The position numbers and the translations under genes are program-made. DNA of 64,000 bases from Bdellovibrionota bacterium. Its GTDB lineage: Bacteria; Bdellovibrionota_C; UBA2361; JAFLCA01. The stretch spans positions 435,556 through 499,555 of the forward strand of contig CP129486.1 in the NCBI GenBank assembly GCA_030584005.1, given 5' to 3'. This document shows, piece by piece, positions 28,943-36,865 of this stretch; within the stretch, counting starts at the first letter, position 1; each line of letters begins with the position of its first letter. The notes beneath the pieces were generated by a model that ran no database searches, was not told the DNA's origin, and was given only the letters and a program-made list of their open reading frames with translations.

Positions 28943-29060
28943 AAAGTCCCAGCAACTTCCTACTTTCGCGGGAAATCCCACTATCATCGGCTCTAGAGGG
29001 CTTAACGACCGTGTTCGGTATGGGAACGGGTGTGGCCCCTCCGAAATAATCACCAGGGCT
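28943..29060 (-). rRNA. rrf: 5S ribosomal RNA
   Basis: reverse complement reads GCCCTGGTGATTATTTCGGAGGGGCCACACCCGTTCCCATACCGAACACGG...GGGAC, canonical 5S. Confidence 0.9.
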
Positions 29061-29797
29061 TAAAGATCCAATAAATCTCTAAGCTCTAGCGACATCCCGC
29101 TGGCACTATTCAGGCCACACATAGAGCGCATGTGAAATCTTGGCGCTAGCCAAGTTTCACAAGCAAGCATGCTTGGCCCCTCCGAAATAATCACCAAGGC
29201 TCAAAAGTCTATTTCAACTTTAAGCTTTGAGGATCCATCGCGGAGTTCTAAAAACAGAAACTGGATTTCATGCGAGCAAAGTACAGCACTGGCCAAACTT
29301 TGCTCGCAGAAATCGTGGTAACTCCAGATTCCTGGAGTACCTCACACCAGAACTTCAGTCCTGGCGATCAACTAATCGTCATTATCGAGCGCGATTCGTA
29401 AAATAAAAATCTACGTTTCGCAGATATTGCACATCTCGGTGCTTACCCCTCGTTTCAGCAATCATTGATAGATCAAGCACGATCTAAAAAATGTCGCGTA
29501 AACCATTGGTAAAAAAAGCATTGTAGCGTCGGTGGTCTGAATTAATCAGACAACAAGCTACCTACCTTGAATTACGCAATCTCTCCACGTGCAAGCACGC
29601 TCTTGAGAAAGCGCTTCCGCGTAATTCAAATCTTGGTTTTGCCAAGTTTGAATTGCTAGAAACAAGGAGGAATTAAGAAAATTTAAGCCGATCGGCAAAT
29701 TAGTACTGGTTAGCTCCATACATTACTGTACTTCCACACCCAGCCTATCAACGTTGTAGTCTACAACATGCCTTAAGGGAGATCTTATCTTGGAGGC

Positions 29798-29830
<33 letters not shown>

Positions 29831-29946
29831 GTTCCGGACATAGCTACCCAGCTGTGCCACTGGCGTGACAACTGGTGCACCATAGGTCCGTTCACTTCGG
29901 CCCTCTCGTACTAGAAGTAACTCTCCTCAAATCTCCTACGGCCACG

Positions 29947-30005
<59 letters not shown>

Positions 30006-30036
30006 TGGCGAACAGCCAAACCCTTGGGACCTACTC

Positions 30037-30091
<55 letters not shown>

Positions 30092-30108
30092 GACTCGTGG
30101 GGGAGATA

Positions 30109-30147
<39 letters not shown>

Positions 30148-30303
30148 CGACCCTTCCATACAGGATCGCCGGATCACTAAGGCCTACTTTCGTACCTGTT
30201 CGAGATGTCCCTCTCACAGTCAAGCAAGTTTATGCCTTTACACTCGACGCGTGGTTTCCAAGCACGCTGAACTTGCCATTGCGCGCCTCCGGTACTCTTT
30301 GGG

Positions 30304-31394
30304 CAACTATGTTTTTCTCCTGCGTGGCACTTTGTAAAGAAAAGATGGCAGTATGAACGGCTCTACAAGAGCTTGGAATTGTTCATACGATCGCCCAGAT
30401 ATATATATTTGGACTCCGTCTTTTTGATGACGCTCCTTGCAAATGAGCTTGAACTTTGTCTCCAGCGTTCGAATAGCGATCGCTATACTTTGTGCGTCGT
30501 AACCCTGTGTATTTAGTATGACGGTCTTTGAGTCCTTCGATTTGAGTGACCCATCATCCATATACCAGTACGCCAGAGCCCGTGGTGTTAACCATCGGTG
30601 TAGCAGTTTTGGAATCGACTTGTGTCGGCCCTTATAAAACTGCTGCGCATAAAAGCGGAAAGCTGCATGGCTATAAGTTTGAAACGTTAAGTTTGTGGAC
30701 TTACTGCCAGTACTGCTTTGTACTATTCGCTCGCGAGGGGGAGTTCTTACCCACTCCTTGAAAAGCTCATAGAGGTGATTCACGTAATCGGCATGAGCTG
30801 CCGACTGTTCTACCTTCACTCGAAAGATGTTTCCGCCTGGCCGACGCTCCAGATGGGCGTCACCGAGGAGAATTCCGACGAGTGTTTCGTGCTGAATCTC
30901 AGAGATTCGCAACGATCTTTTGAGCTCTTCAATTTGTTTTGAGCGCATCGATTAAAGTGCCGCGAGAGTTCTGACTAATAATGTCAGCTTTCAGTCGCCT
31001 GAAAGTTCAGACTGTATCACTCTCCAATGGTACTACTGTATACCATGGAGACTTGGCGTTCAGTCGTTGAGGGGAAATCGAAGCGCAACTTGAATCTTGC
31101 TCCGAAGTCTTCCCTGCTGATTGTCCGCACCAGTGCATTTTCACTGAATCATTTTTTAACCTTCCGAATCGTGGTGTTACCAGGTTCGGATAGTTGCTGA
31201 TTCAGTAGCACATGGATTCTAACCCTTTTTCAACCGAAGCAAGAGTGAGCTTCGATGATGAAGAGACGGAGTTTCCAGCATACAGCCAAATTTGCCTTAC
31301 ACGTTACCGTGTAAGCGCCCCTAATTTCATTCCACAGGTCATTTGATCTATGGAAAGTCAATTTATCAGGCGCGATAAATTGCTTATGCGGTCG
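30304..31394 (-). other. group-I-type intron in 23S rRNA at approx. E. coli position 2262 (beside P-loop)
   Basis: exon reads ...GGGGCGGTCGCCT | intron | CCCAAAGAGTACCGGAGG; upstream exon ends in U, intron ends in G; exon between the two introns is exactly 331 nt = E. coli 1932..2262. Confidence 0.75.
30307..30948 (-). CDS. double-motif LAGLIDADG homing endonuclease encoded in the 23S intron
   Basis: 213 aa; motifs LVGILLGDAHL and LAYWYMDDGSLK; stop codon 3 nt before the intron 3-prime end. Confidence 0.8.
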   Translation of the reverse strand: MRSKQIEELKRSLRISEIQHETLVGILLGDAHLERRPGGNIFRVKVEQSAAHADYVNHLYELFKEWVRTPPRERIVQSSTGSKSTNLTFQTYSHAAFRFYAQQFYKGRHKSIPKLLHRWLTPRALAYWYMDDGSLKSKDSKTVILNTQGYDAQSIAIAIRTLETKFKLICKERHQKDGVQIYISGRSYEQFQALVEPFILPSFLYKVPRRRKT

Positions 31395-31678
31395 AGGCGA
31401 CCGCCCCAGTCAAACTACCCACCACGCGCTGTCTTGGATGAGGATTACTCATCTCAGTTAGAGGTCAGAAACTGTAAGGGTGGTATTTCAAGGTTGACTC
31501 CATTAAGGCTAGCGCCCTAACTTCAAAGTCTCCCACCTATCCTACACATACAATTCCCGACATCAACGCGAAGGTATAGTAAAGGTGCACGGGGTCTTTT
31601 CGTCCTGCCGCGGCTACCCGGCTTTTTTACCGAGATATCAATTTCACTGAGTTCGTCGTCGAGACAATGGGGATGTCG

Positions 31679-31725
<47 letters not shown>

Positions 31726-32356
31726 CAGATCTCCTAATTTGTTTCCAATTTAGCTGGACTTTCTCTTTGCAATCCGCGGTTCATCTTTATTGCTATGGAG
31801 CGAATTTCTTCAATTCCATTTTTTCTTAAATGAACCCCACCTTCCATCAATAAGAGCACTGACTTGAATAATTCAAAATCAAGCTTCTTTTTTGATTGAA
31901 GTGGATGCTTACTGAAGAACGGGATAATTATTTCACGTAGGTGTTCTAATTTTCGAACTCGATAGGCTAGACGGTCTCCGTGATTCACCCGAACCACGCC
32001 ACAACCGAAAAAGCTTTTCAAGGCTTCTAATAATTGAACGTCTCGTTTGTGTTGGACGACTGTGAATTCAGGCAAGACCTGAACACCCAGCGTCATTTCC
32101 TTATGAGTATTAATACCCACATGGAAACAACCTTCTCCATCTACAAATCCTACAACCCAATCTGCATTAAGATTCATGGGACGCACCAAACGTAAAGTCT
32201 CTGAGGGTTCCCGGAACGACCCGGGCCTTCCCTGCTGATTGCCTCCCTGTCTGTTGGATTTTCACTGCCAGAACAAGTTCTGGCGAGTACCATACAGTTT
32301 TTGAAGGGTTTCCAGCATATGGTTTAGTTTTACTAAGGCTAGCGATTCTATCTTTA
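31726..32356 (-). other. group-I-type intron in 23S rRNA at E. coli position 1931
   Basis: exon ...CGGTCCTAAGGT | intron (631 nt, ends in G) | AGCGAAATTCCTTGTCGGG. Confidence 0.8.
31734..32189 (-). CDS. single-motif LAGLIDADG homing endonuclease (I-CreI-like size class) encoded in the 23S intron
   Basis: 151 aa; WVVGFVDGEGCF motif; stop 8 nt before intron 3-prime end. Confidence 0.8.
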   Translation of the reverse strand: MVRPMNLNADWVVGFVDGEGCFHVGINTHKEMTLGVQVLPEFTVVQHKRDVQLLEALKSFFGCGVVRVNHGDRLAYRVRKLEHLREIIIPFFSKHPLQSKKKLDFELFKSVLLLMEGGVHLRKNGIEEIRSIAIKMNRGLQRESPAKLETN

Positions 32357-32401
<45 letters not shown>

Positions 32402-32485
32402 GCTCATCGCTTCGCGTAAAGCTAACGATTCACCTTAACCTTCCGGCACCGGGCAGGCGTCAGACCCTATACTTCCTCTTACGAG

Positions 32486-32519
<34 letters not shown>

Positions 32520-34074
32520 AACCCCCTGCTCTCTGCAACCCTCAATAGCTTCAAAAAGTAAATTCTTTAACTATCGAAGGCCCACCTTCTCCCGAAGTTA
32601 CGGTGGCAGTGTGTTGAGTTCCTTGACGACGATTCTCTCAAGCGCTTTAGTATACTCTACTCGCCCACCTGTGTCGGTTTACGGTACGGGCAGTGCTGTA
32701 CTCACTTAGAGGCTTTTCTTGGAAGTGTGGGATCAATCAGTTCGCTCCGGGTTTCCCCTTTGCTCCCCATTACCTCTCGGAATATGCCAGAGCGGATTTG
32801 CCTACTCCAGCTTCCTACGGGCTTAGACCGCGAACCAACATGCGGCTGATCTACCCTCCTTCGTCCCCTCATCGCTAAAACGTACAACGCTGGCACGGGA
32901 ATATTAACCCGTTTTCCATCGACTACGCCTTTCGGCCTCGCCTTAGGACCCGGCTTACCCTGGTAGGATTACCCTAGCCCAGGAACCCTTGGGCTCACAG
33001 CGGAAGAGTTTTTCACTCTTCTTATCGTTACTCATACCGGCATACTCACTTGTCTGAACTCCACGCGTCCTTACGGTCACGCTTCAATGCACAGACAACG
33101 CTCCTCTACCGCTCCTCAGGTCCGAAGACCTGTTAAACCCGTAGCTTCGGTACAATGCTTAGCCCCGTTAAATTTTCCGCGCAGGAAAGCTTGACTAGTG
33201 AGCTGTTACGCTTTCTTTAAAGGATGGCTGCTTCTAAGCCAACCTCCTAGTTGGCTTAGCTCTCCCACAACGTTTGCCACTTAGCATTGATTTTGGGACC
33301 TTAGCTGACGGTCTGGGATCTTTCCCTCTCGCGAACGGACCTTATCACCCGCCCACTGACTCCCGGATTCTGACTCTAACGGTATTCGGAGACTATCTGG
33401 ATTTGGTAGACTGGTAGGTCCCCTAGTCCAATCAGTGCTCTACCCCCGTTAGATATATTGTCCGAGGCTATACCTAAATATATTTCGAGGAGAACCAGCT
33501 ATCACCCGGCTTGTTTAGCCTTTCACTCCTACTCACAGCTCATCCGAGAAATTTTAAACTTTCACCGGTTCGGTCCTCCGCCAGGTGTTACCCTGGTTTC
33601 AACCTGTCCATGAGTAGATCGCACGGGTTTCGGGTCTACTCCGTGTAACTAGACGCCCTTTTAAGACTCGCTTTCGCTACGGCTACGCCTCACGGCTTAA
33701 CCTAACGCTACACAGAAGTAACTCGCCGGCTCATGATGCAAAAGGTACGCGGTCGCACGTTAAGTCCGAAGACTTCATAGTGCTTCCACTGCTTGTAGAT
33801 GTACGGTTTCAGGTCTATTTCACTCCCCTTTAGGGGCGCTTTTCACCTTTCCCTCACGGAACTAGTTCACTATCGGTCAGTAACGAGTATTTAGCCTTGG
33901 ATAATGGTCCACCCAGATTCCCACAAGATTCCTAGTGTCTCGTGGTACTCAGGAACGTACTCACAGCCTTTGTCGGTTTCGCTTACAGGGGTTTCACCTT
34001 CTGTGCCCTAGCTTTCCAACTAAGTTCAACTACCCACTCGGGTCTGCTTTATTGTACGCCCTACAACCCTCGAC

Positions 34075-34262
34075 GAGCATTTATGCTCGTCGAGCACGCC
34101 GGAGGCGATATGAAATACGCGTAGCGTAGTTCACGTCGCGGAGGCGGGCTCTCCTATGCATAAATGTTTCAGTCAACCTTCGCTTGCTCGCGCAAGCTCC
34201 GGCCGATCTCCTCGCATTTATGTTCGCTTCGAACATAAATGCTCGTCGAGTTTAGGCTCTTC
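34075..34262 (-). other. extra ~185-nt hairpin-rich insertion in 23S domain I (approx. E. coli position 270); candidate intervening sequence / expansion segment
   Basis: ends CTCGACGAGCATTTATG ... CATAAATGCTCGTCGAG are long inverted repeats; internal hairpins; absent from E. coli alignment. Confidence 0.5.
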
Positions 34263-34798
34263 CCTTTTCGCTCGCACTACTGGGGGAATCTCTTTTGATT
34301 TCTCTTCCTGCAGGTACTAAGATTTTTCAATTCCCTGCGTTGGCTTCCTTTCGGATGGTCATAAAGACCAGGTTTCCCTATTCAGAAATCTCCGGGTCAA
34401 AGTTTATTCGGCAACTCACCGGAGCTTATCGCAGCCATATCACGTCTTTCTTCGCCTGTTACTGCCGAGGCATCCACCGTACACCCTTAGTAGCTTAAAT
34501 ATTTCTTAATATCTGTCGCTACCGATTGATGTGCTTTCTATTCTACTACCGCAGAGCTTGCGCCCTGCGAGTCAATTCCGCCTCGTGGAAGTTTTTTGCG
34601 CGTCCACGAAGTTATCTCCAACAGGTGACACTTCACATGCTGAAGAACAAAAATTGACAAATCGCGCTCGAGAATGACGACTCAGTCAACTTATTCGTCT
34701 ACCCATATTCAATTGTAATCGCGACCTACTACTGCTCGGTCGCAAGCGGCCTTTTATGTTAGCCGCAAACAAATCTTCGACTCGTTGCCTGTGTTGAG

Positions 34799-34932
34799 CG
34801 TAATTGGAATCTTGGCAGAGCCAAGTTCCAATAGCTAACTCCCGGCGTAATTGGAATCTTGGCAGAGCCAAGTTCCAATAGCTAACTCCCGCTGTAATTG
34901 GAATCTTGGCAGAGCCAAGTTCCGATAGCTGG
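34799..34932. repeat. 3 x ~46-nt tandem repeat in the 16S-23S spacer, each unit with hairpin GGAATCTTGGCAGAGCCAAGTTCC
   Basis: GTAATTGGAATCTTGGCAGAGCCAAGTTCCAATAGCTAACTCCCG repeated three times (third unit diverged). Confidence 0.8.
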
Positions 34933-35347
34933 AAATGCCGCAACGGTCATCGATAGAAGCTGGTTTTGCTCAAGCGTAGCAGGATAGCGTGCTGTAACTA
35001 TCACCGTGTTTCCACAGTGAATCATCCAGCGTAATCAAAATATTGGCACGCCTACGTTTCGTAGAAACTACGGCGCGTAGACTCCGCCAATTTTTGATAG
35101 CTAAAAAACTGAGCTCAGGGAGTAATACTATCTTCGTCATGTAAGCGTCTTGCGACGCTATCTCGTAAAAGGTGGATCTTACCTGAGGATCCGAGATTGT
35201 TTGTCGTTTCCGTTTCGTCCAACAGAAGCAAAAAGCTCTGTCTTTCTAACGGTATCCTGATTCATGTCCAGCTTTGCTGTTTATGAATCCAATCCATTCT
35301 GAAGCCCGATGTTGATCTTTCGATCGCACGGAACTTGAGGACTCCTT

Positions 35348-36865
<1,518 letters not shown>

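Follow-up and report, generated by a model that had tools for sequence, protein, structure and literature searches.

A group I intron with an I-SceI-type endonuclease gene beside the P-loop of a Bdellovibrionota 23S rRNA gene: a probable member of a widespread bacterial lineage

The 23S ribosomal RNA (rRNA) gene in a 64,000-nucleotide (nt) stretch of the genome of an uncultured Bdellovibrionota bacterium (GenBank contig CP129486.1, positions 435,556 to 499,555; hereafter 'the window', with coordinates counted from its first base) is interrupted after U2262 (Escherichia coli numbering) by a 1,091-nt insert. This insert is a group I intron with a P1–P9 core that is supported by covariation among related introns, and it contains the gene for a LAGLIDADG protein. 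We consider it highly probable (about 0.88) that the insert is mobile and belongs to a lineage of group I introns, widespread in bacteria, that we designate 'L2262'; splicing of the intron, cleavage of DNA by its protein, and mobility are functions that we infer from the sequences described here.

The rRNA operon in the window is located on the minus strand, with the 16S gene at 35349-36865, the 23S gene at 29679-34500, and the 5S gene at 28947-29057 (Rfam models); it is the single rRNA operon within the window. The 23S gene is 4,822 nt long, compared with the 2,925 positions of the Rfam model, and a global alignment with the 23S rRNA of E. coli identifies two large insertions, at 32356..31726 (631 nt) and at 31394..30304 (1,091 nt); the 1,091-nt stretch is also an insertion in the alignment with the Rfam large subunit (LSU) model. 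The E. coli reference is the RefSeq 23S copy (2,905 nt), the numbering of which is shifted by +1 relative to the standard numbering between 1911 and 2605; this offset fits 18 of 18 known modified-nucleotide positions in the same interval. Applying the offset, the insertions are placed after standard positions 1931 and 2262. The first-pass annotation, made from the sequence, had described an insert of this extent (30304-31394) at approximately position 2262 beside the P-loop; the extent is confirmed by both alignments, and the corrected numbering gives L2262 as the site. In the established 23S secondary structure, helix 81 has position 2262 in its 5' strand, directly 3' of the hairpin that forms the P-loop (helix 80).

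At the junctions, the 5' exon ending in ...GGGGCGGTCGCCT is followed by the intron, CGACCGC...CATAGTTG, and then by the 3' exon, CCCAAAGAGTACCGGAGG. The exons, once joined, match E. coli without a gap and restore a perfect helix 81 stem (CGCCUCC/GGAGGCG). The base that precedes the intron is U and the last base of the intron is G, as had been read earlier, and the exon that separates the two introns is 331 nt long, so its proposed use as a cross-check of both junctions holds. The first base is C in both the intron and its 3' exon, so from the window sequence alone the boundaries could slide by one base; this ambiguity is removed because the introns of 7 of the 63 relatives aligned below begin with T, and both the rule of a U.G pair and a terminal G and the covariation in P9.0 (described below) concur.

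The intron class that the first-pass annotation implied is borne out, as group I, by a score above threshold with the Rfam Intron_gpI model (RF00028) and by the covarying core: positions 30988-31364 match the whole model (positions 1-253) with 61.7 bits (gathering score, 50; E = 3e-13). The ribozyme is the first ~425 nt of the intron, that is, the whole catalytic core is upstream of the open reading frame (ORF), and all of the core helices are intact in the window sequence. In the description that follows, all features are on the minus strand and the window coordinate is 31395 minus the intron position. P1 is formed by the last five bases of the 5' exon, CGCCU (31395..31399), and the guide GGGCG (intron 75-79), with the U2262.G75 wobble at the 5' splice site; GGGGCG, the internal guide sequence that provides the 3' strand of P1, occupies intron 74-79 (31316..31321; folding and covariation). 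The P1 loop (intron 2-73, 31322..31393) begins with GACCGC, the complement of exon GCGGUC, and includes ~55 nt that are specific to the window and contain two hairpins; in the 14 other 'CGACCGC' introns that were compared, the loop is ~18 nt.

P2 is an 8-base pair (bp) hairpin with a GUAA loop (intron 80-99, 31296..31315). Rfam alignment, covariation, and folding together locate the 5' strand of P3 at 31285-31291 (intron 104-110, pairing with 338-344), P4 at 31275-31280 with 31115-31120 (intron 115-120 with 275-280), and P5 at 31266-31270 with 31124-31128 (intron 125-129 with 267-271); a 137-nt extension of P5, assigned by folding, contains the GUGAAAAUG element that is found throughout the family. 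P6 (intron 281-323; Rfam alignment and folding) completes the region from P3 to P6 (31072..31291). The strands of P7, GACUG (intron 330-334, 31061-31065; covariation) and CAGUC (intron 381-385, 31010-31014), enclose the 3' strand of P3, GCCAAGU (intron 338-344, 31051-31057), and the P8 hairpin (intron 345-373, 31022..31050). J7/9 (UGAA, within 31006..31014) supplies the partners for P9.0, A388 and A389 (31007 and 31006); P9, with 7 bp and a GCGA loop (intron 390-407, 30988-31005), and the P9.1 hairpin (intron 408-424, 30971-30987) are assigned by folding. The linker J7/3, between P7 and the 3' strand of P3, is only 3 nt (AAC), and the P7.1/P7.2 helices are absent; the intron is, therefore, not a member of subgroup IA (e.g., IA3 at L2593).

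The ORF (30307..30948, minus strand) encodes a homing endonuclease of 213 residues and ends in TAG, which is followed by TTG and then by the 3' exon; its termination 3 nt before the splice site had been correctly read from the sequence. The two motifs are LVGILLGDAHL and LAYWYMDDGSLK. Residues 21-191 match positions 2-168 of the 168 in the Pfam profile PF03161 (LAGLIDADG_2; E = 2.1e-46, 158.4 bits vs a gathering score of 25), and the protein matches I-SceI over 207 residues with E = 1e-34. GILLGD30 and YWYMD131D132 align with the I-SceI motifs GLILGDAY and AYWFMDDGG, respectively; the catalytic residues D30 and D131/D132 are invariant in an alignment of 32 members of the family, and, next to the ORFs of its relatives, this ORF is complete, with no frameshift. 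AlphaFold2 predicts a two-domain, pseudo-symmetric fold (pLDDT 91.5, pTM 0.88), and Foldseek superimposes this predicted model on I-SceI (5a0m; TM score 0.89, root-mean-square deviation 1.8 Å) and on I-WcaI (TM score 0.90), with deviations of 1.7-1.8 Å. The profile, the I-SceI match, and the predicted fold thus agree with the first-pass description of a double-motif, monomeric LAGLIDADG protein, and we conclude from the alignments and the model that it is an intact enzyme of the I-SceI type, with both the predicted fold and the catalytic residues intact. Two ORFs on the opposite strand inside this gene (30546-30761 and 30718-30942, plus strand) are treated as chance ORFs.

A search of a protein collection with the endonuclease identified 485 homologues, and a search of 185,579 GTDB species genomes gave 162 matches, of which 80 related loci were kept; these loci were, therefore, found through the encoded protein. 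We define the L2262 lineage by insertion between ...GGCGGUCNCCU and CCNAAA..GUAACGGAGG of the 23S gene together with a homologous ribozyme and a homologous enzyme. The gene is at the same 23S junction in all 80 loci, which represent ~20 phyla; the 3' junction is present in 80 of 80, both junctions are resolved in 63, and the protein identities are 42-59%. The hosts include Bacteroidota, Chloroflexota, Planctomycetota, Armatimonadota, Elusimicrobia, Omnitrophota, Bipolaricaulota, Thiomargarita, Desulfobacterales, and Patescibacteria (~20 of the loci). We found no paper, in the collection that we searched, in which an intron at position 2262 is named. The window intron is a divergent member of this large, little-described lineage, which is widespread, apparently has no name, and consists of elements whose kind is well known. 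The rRNA intron compilation of the Gutell laboratory is said to include organellar cases near 2262.

Many of the 23S genes in this family contain more than one insertion: at ~27 of 61 loci, one or more further insertions of at least 160 nt are found in the same gene (in the intervals 1907-1949, 2445-2577, and 2577-2604), so two introns per gene are common among these relatives. The claim in the first-pass annotation that two homing-endonuclease introns in a single bacterial 23S gene are unusual was, therefore, overstated; precedents have also been published, in Synechococcus C9 (PMC1995217) and in bacteria of the candidate phyla radiation (CPR), where 23S genes with several introns are very frequent (PMC11270868). 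In several metagenome-assembled genomes from outside the CPR, including Elusimicrobia and Armatimonadota (L036, L048, L053, L058, and others), the 3' half of the 23S gene has three insertions of 365-853 nt, that is, the L2262 intron and inserts in 1907-1949, 2445-2577, or 2577-2604.

For analysis of covariation, the 63 introns with both junctions resolved (including the window intron; lengths of 890-1,139 nt) were aligned; their ribozyme parts align throughout. The structure that was evaluated (P1–P9, with P7 as a pseudoknot) was drawn from the window sequence, itself one of the aligned introns, and this introduces some favorable bias; however, such bias cannot yield the number of compensatory pair types in P2, P3, P8, and P9, the switch in P7, or the double change in P4. 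Pairing is retained in 94.8% of the cells for P1–P9; a shift of the partners by 1-3 columns lowers this to 36-46%. Compensatory changes are found in 32 of the 52 pairs, which are distributed over nine helices. For covariation, a score of 0.402 compares with 0.06-0.08 after such a shift, and none of 500 shuffles reaches the observed values. In P1, the U.G wobble is kept in 61 of the 63 introns, and the pairs at exon -4 and -5 show compensatory changes. All eight pairs of P2 change on both sides; compensatory changes are found in 6 of the 7 pairs of P3, 5 of the 5 outer pairs of P8, and 5 of the 7 pairs of P9. The fifth pair of P7 is A-U in 31 introns and G-C in 28, and one pair of P4 shows a U-A to G-C double change.

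The 3' splice site is ~680 nt downstream of P9. The last three bases of the intron (30304..30306) are the UU that forms the 3' strand of P9.0, pairing with the AA of J7/9, and the terminal G. The terminal trinucleotide is (U/A)UG in 63 of 63 introns; the third-last base covaries with the last base of J7/9 (column 715) in every one of them (U-A in 44, A-U in 19), and the neighboring U-A pair of P9.0 is invariant. This perfect covariation implies a P9.0 of 2 bp and fixes the 3' boundary to the base. The introns also have a conserved (G/U)AACA element 7-11 nt upstream of their 3' end; when every column of the alignment was scanned for a partner of this element, only P9.0 emerged. We also considered P10 as a determinant of the splice site and rejected it, because the CCC of the 3' exon pairs with at most one base flanking the guide.

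The loop that contains the ORF is closed by a long-range helix that we name P9.2. Its 5' strand (intron 427-441, 30954..30968) ends 5 nt upstream of the start codon, at the position taken by a Shine-Dalgarno sequence in the relatives, and its 3' strand (intron 1062-1078, 30317..30333) is within the last codons of the ORF (...YKVPRRR). The duplex has a predicted energy of -18.3 kcal/mol in the window; across the family, cognate duplexes average -16.1 kcal/mol vs -10.1 kcal/mol for non-cognate combinations (a difference of ~6), and for over half of the introns their own tail ranks in the top three of the 63.

With this arrangement, the gene and the ribozyme share sequence: the codons of the conserved ORF tail, YK(L/V/I)P...RRT, also make up the 3' strand of P9.2 together with P9.0 and the 3' splice site. 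The frame of the endonuclease crosses this splice site in 37 of the 63 introns, and 31 of these read-through frames end in ...LPK(E/R/K/L) and stop on the exon's own UAA (CCU AAA GAG UAA); the full-length protein would then be made only from the unspliced precursor. The exon in the window is GAGUAC, without this UAA, and the ORF ends on the TAG inside the intron; the same is found in L011, the only other locus with GUAC. The early stop in the window thus fits a host exon that lacks the UAA used by the relatives. The Shine-Dalgarno sequence of the relatives (GGGAG or GGAGG) often pairs with the codons of the K-L-P motif (CUCCC); in the window, GGCAC is paired with GUGCC, and the motif becomes K-V-P.

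A second overlap, here with the exon, is found at the 5' end. Fifteen of the 63 introns, that is, the window intron and L006, L009, L010, L012, L016, L018, L020, L025, L034, L036, L038, L039, L044, and L057, begin with (C/U)GACCGC, a perfect complement of the exon sequence GCGGUC(G) that is the 3' strand of the P-loop helix; this start is conserved, whereas the loop bases that come next vary. In the window, intron +2..+7 would pair with exon -10..-5 (31388-31393 with 31399-31404, minus strand). This pairing could be an alternative hairpin that hides or gates the 5' splice site, or it could act as a clamp that keeps the freed 5' exon in place after the first step of splicing; because the exon side does not vary, covariation is uninformative about this pairing. 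Simultaneous formation of P1 and the exon/GACCGC helix as a pseudoknot before cleavage was rejected as sterically unlikely, with one linking base across 4 bp. The window intron also has a 9-bp hairpin of its own (31359-31382, minus strand; intron 13-36), the 6-nt loop of which, GCGCCU, resembles the end of the 5' exon and, in folding calculations, pairs with the guide better than does the true exon; this hairpin may be a decoy or a site for circularization. We regard as tentative, at somewhat less than even odds, the broader proposal that the L2262 introns are an undescribed, pan-bacterial, I-SceI-like lineage in which the gene and the ribozyme are structurally interlocked. If these couplings are functional, expression of the endonuclease would be linked to the splicing state.

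The intron is not an artifact of one assembly. Logan assemblies from five separate sequencing runs contain the 1,091-nt intron with at least 99.7% identity (0-3 substitutions), and three of their contigs (L089, L090, and L092) cover both exon junctions; an assembly chimera, which the first-pass annotation had listed as a possible refutation, is contradicted by these independent contigs. One natural variant, A>G at 31298 in P2, changes a U-A pair to U.G, so pairing is kept. No intron-less allele of this species was recovered when metagenomes were scanned for exact matches to a 40-mer across the spliced junction; the seven contigs that match are from other organisms (23S only ~78% identical) and are uninformative about polymorphism.

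For a mobile intron with these parts, we propose that transcription within the pre-23S rRNA would be followed by folding of the ribozyme into the P1–P9 core. Through pairing of the exon CGCCU with the guide GGGCG, the 5' splice site would be marked by the U2262.G wobble and would be attacked there by free guanosine; the 3' splice site would be brought near by P9.2 (looping out the ~640-nt ORF), by P9.0, and by docking of the terminal G in P7; and ligation of the exons would restore helix 81. The template for translation of the endonuclease would be either the precursor or the excised intron; by analogy with enzymes of the I-SceI type, the endonuclease would cut the intron-less 23S gene across GGGGCGGTCNCCT^CCNAAAGAGTA (predicted target duplex, GGGGCGGTCGCCTCCCAAAGAGTACCGGAG); repair from an intron-bearing copy would then spread the element (homing). 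We infer cleavage of the intron-less allele from homology and from the fidelity of the family to its site.

Several observations weigh against a self-splicing, homing element. If there is only one rRNA operon in the genome, the cell that makes the enzyme would offer it no target. With 5 bp, P1 is short for easy self-splicing, and P10, as read from the sequence, has at most 1 bp. When the 5' region is folded in isolation, exon GCGGUCG and intron CGACCGC form a hairpin and the guide is placed on the GCGCCU look-alike instead of in P1; with this competing fold, splicing could be slow or dependent on a helper. No Shine-Dalgarno sequence is recognizable upstream of the window ORF, and the region before its start is base-paired. 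Finally, the closest relatives outside the window's own species have only 57-59% protein identity, so recent mobility cannot be judged. In a rival reading, the protein is kept mainly as a maturase that assists folding and splicing of the ribozyme, with endonuclease activity and homing secondary or lost. LAGLIDADG proteins that are maturases exist, including the protein of a Thermotoga 23S intron (PMC3984707), and the short P1, the near-absent P10, and the competing 5' structures make a helper protein plausible; the retention of intact ORFs over many phyla would also be expected, although this retention is biased because the loci were found via the protein. However, both catalytic Asp residues and the entire DNA-binding scaffold are conserved, and strict fidelity to one site in ~20 phyla, together with a distribution that is patchy, is as expected from homing; we consider a principal role as maturase unlikely, and a maturase role reasonable as a secondary hypothesis, and the two roles are in any case compatible.

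The ~55-nt insertion in the P1 loop and the enlarged P5 extension that are private to the window intron, the lack of a Shine-Dalgarno sequence, and a stop codon that is earlier than in 37 of the 63 relatives might instead indicate a decaying relic, that is, an inactive ribozyme or enzyme in an insert that is tolerated, is removed in another way, or is located in a non-functional rRNA gene. This we judge to be quite improbable: none of the core helices is disrupted, the ORF has its full length and no frameshift, the strains in the five sequencing runs differ by only 0-3 substitutions (the one in P2 keeps its pairing), and the early stop fits the exon GAGUAC, which lacks the relatives' UAA. In addition, if the operon is a working one, an unspliced 1.1-kb insert in helix 81, near the peptidyl-transferase center, would most likely be lethal. 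Intervening sequences that are processed by RNase III, that is, excised without ligation to give a fragmented 23S rRNA, are frequent in bacterial 23S genes (PMC11270868), and the same gene contains a candidate in domain I; but the insert at 2262 interrupts a universally conserved helix instead of a variable one, has a covarying group I core with a defined 3' splice site, and has no long terminal stem that would link its ends. A chimeric assembly would have to account for both junctions in three independent contigs and for the same arrangement in 80 other genomes. The chance that the insert is either an intervening sequence or a chimera is, in our estimation, close to nil, and a mobile group I intron of the L2262 lineage is the reading that we prefer.

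The remainder of the operon has additional features of note. The first intron (31726..32356, minus strand; 631 nt, after position 1931 in the E. coli alignment) contains an ORF for a single-motif LAGLIDADG_1 protein of 151 residues (31734-32189, minus strand; Pfam PF00961, 4.7e-26); this ORF stops 8 nt short of the 3' splice site. Its score with Rfam Intron_gpI (29.9 bits, E = 1.4e-5) is below the gathering score, so this intron would be missed by default annotation. In domain I of the 23S gene, near E. coli 270-290, the region 34038-34252 (minus strand) has an extra ~165-186 nt relative to both E. coli and the model of Rfam. The predicted fold of this extra sequence is branched, with a perfect stem of ~21 bp (CUCGACGAGCAUUUAUGUUCG...) that closes it and a z-score of -6.4, and the sequence looks like an intervening sequence of the RNase III type, which would fragment the 23S rRNA, and not an intron. 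A 24-nt expansion relative to E. coli (UAACAGGUCUUCGGACCUGAGGAG; 33112-33135, minus strand) is found near E. coli 1183 in the helix-45 region, a frequent spot for intervening sequences. ARAGORN identifies no tRNA gene in the 16S-23S spacer (34501-35348, 848 nt), and the 23S-5S spacer (29058-29678) is unusually long, ~620 nt.

Intron sequence thus makes up 1.7 kb of the 23S gene in the window and includes two protein genes that are not annotated, and the same arrangement is found in at least 162 species-level genomes. Such introns can break rRNA primers, rRNA gene calling, and the binning of metagenomes. The family also adds Bdellovibrionota to the hosts of group I introns in rRNA and indicates that 23S genes with multiple introns are common beyond the CPR, and it provides hundreds of natural enzymes with the I-SceI scaffold for one conserved target adjacent to the P-loop, a resource for study of the evolution of LAGLIDADG specificity and for meganuclease engineering. 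These findings overturn nothing in current understanding; their interest is modest and resides chiefly in the sequence that is shared by the gene and the ribozyme.

Among known systems, one of the closest counterparts is the omega intron of yeast mitochondria (Sc.L2449) with I-SceI, together with I-WcaI; as in the window, a group I intron in LSU rRNA encodes a monomeric, double-motif enzyme of the LAGLIDADG_2 family. The window protein has 32% identity with these enzymes, a TM score of 0.89, and the same catalytic Asp residues. The omega intron differs in its site, 2449 in the peptidyl-transferase ring instead of 2262 in helix 81, and the host of the window intron is a bacterium. The position of the ORF also differs: that of the window intron occupies the P9.2 loop, in the 3'-terminal domain, and extends into the elements of the 3' splice site, whereas the ORF for I-SceI is in a P8 loop.

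Group I introns that carry genes for homing endonucleases are well known in bacterial 23S genes and include those of Thermotoga and Simkania at L1931, Coxiella at L1917 and L1951, and Synechococcus C9 at L1917, L1931, and L2593 (PMC1995217, PMC3984707), and bacterial 23S genes with multiple introns were reported in 2007 (PMC1995217). The likenesses are substantial: the gene is the same, some cases have multiple introns, the ORFs may enter the ribozyme core, and the first intron in the window is also at L1931. However, the enzymes of those introns are single-motif homodimers, and 2262 is absent from the 2007 compilation. In the CPR, introns interrupt 82% of the 23S genes at recurrent sites, and some of them are of group I and encode LAGLIDADG proteins (Tsurumaki et al., 2024; PMC11270868); three of the sites, 23IS9-11, are ordered between those named 1952 and 2593 and are stated to be unreported in known bacteria (PMC11270868). 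Patescibacteria account for ~20 of the loci related to the window intron, so L2262 is probably one of these three sites, which the text of the paper gives without positions. Unlike the hosts in that survey, the host of the window intron is a non-CPR member of Bdellovibrionota, and the survey emphasizes single-domain enzymes. A further relative in kind is I-MG11, a metagenomic, I-SceI-like monomer of 219 residues from a 23S intron, for which cleavage of the reconstructed exon junction has been demonstrated (bioRxiv 10.64898/2026.03.18.712669). I-MG11 resembles the window protein in scaffold, size, and origin; however, its target, TAAAAGGGTACGCGAGCTGGGTTCAAACCG, has the conserved core GAGCTGGGTT at ~2576 in E. 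coli, which rules it out as a member of the L2262 family and makes it an enzyme for another site with another specificity.

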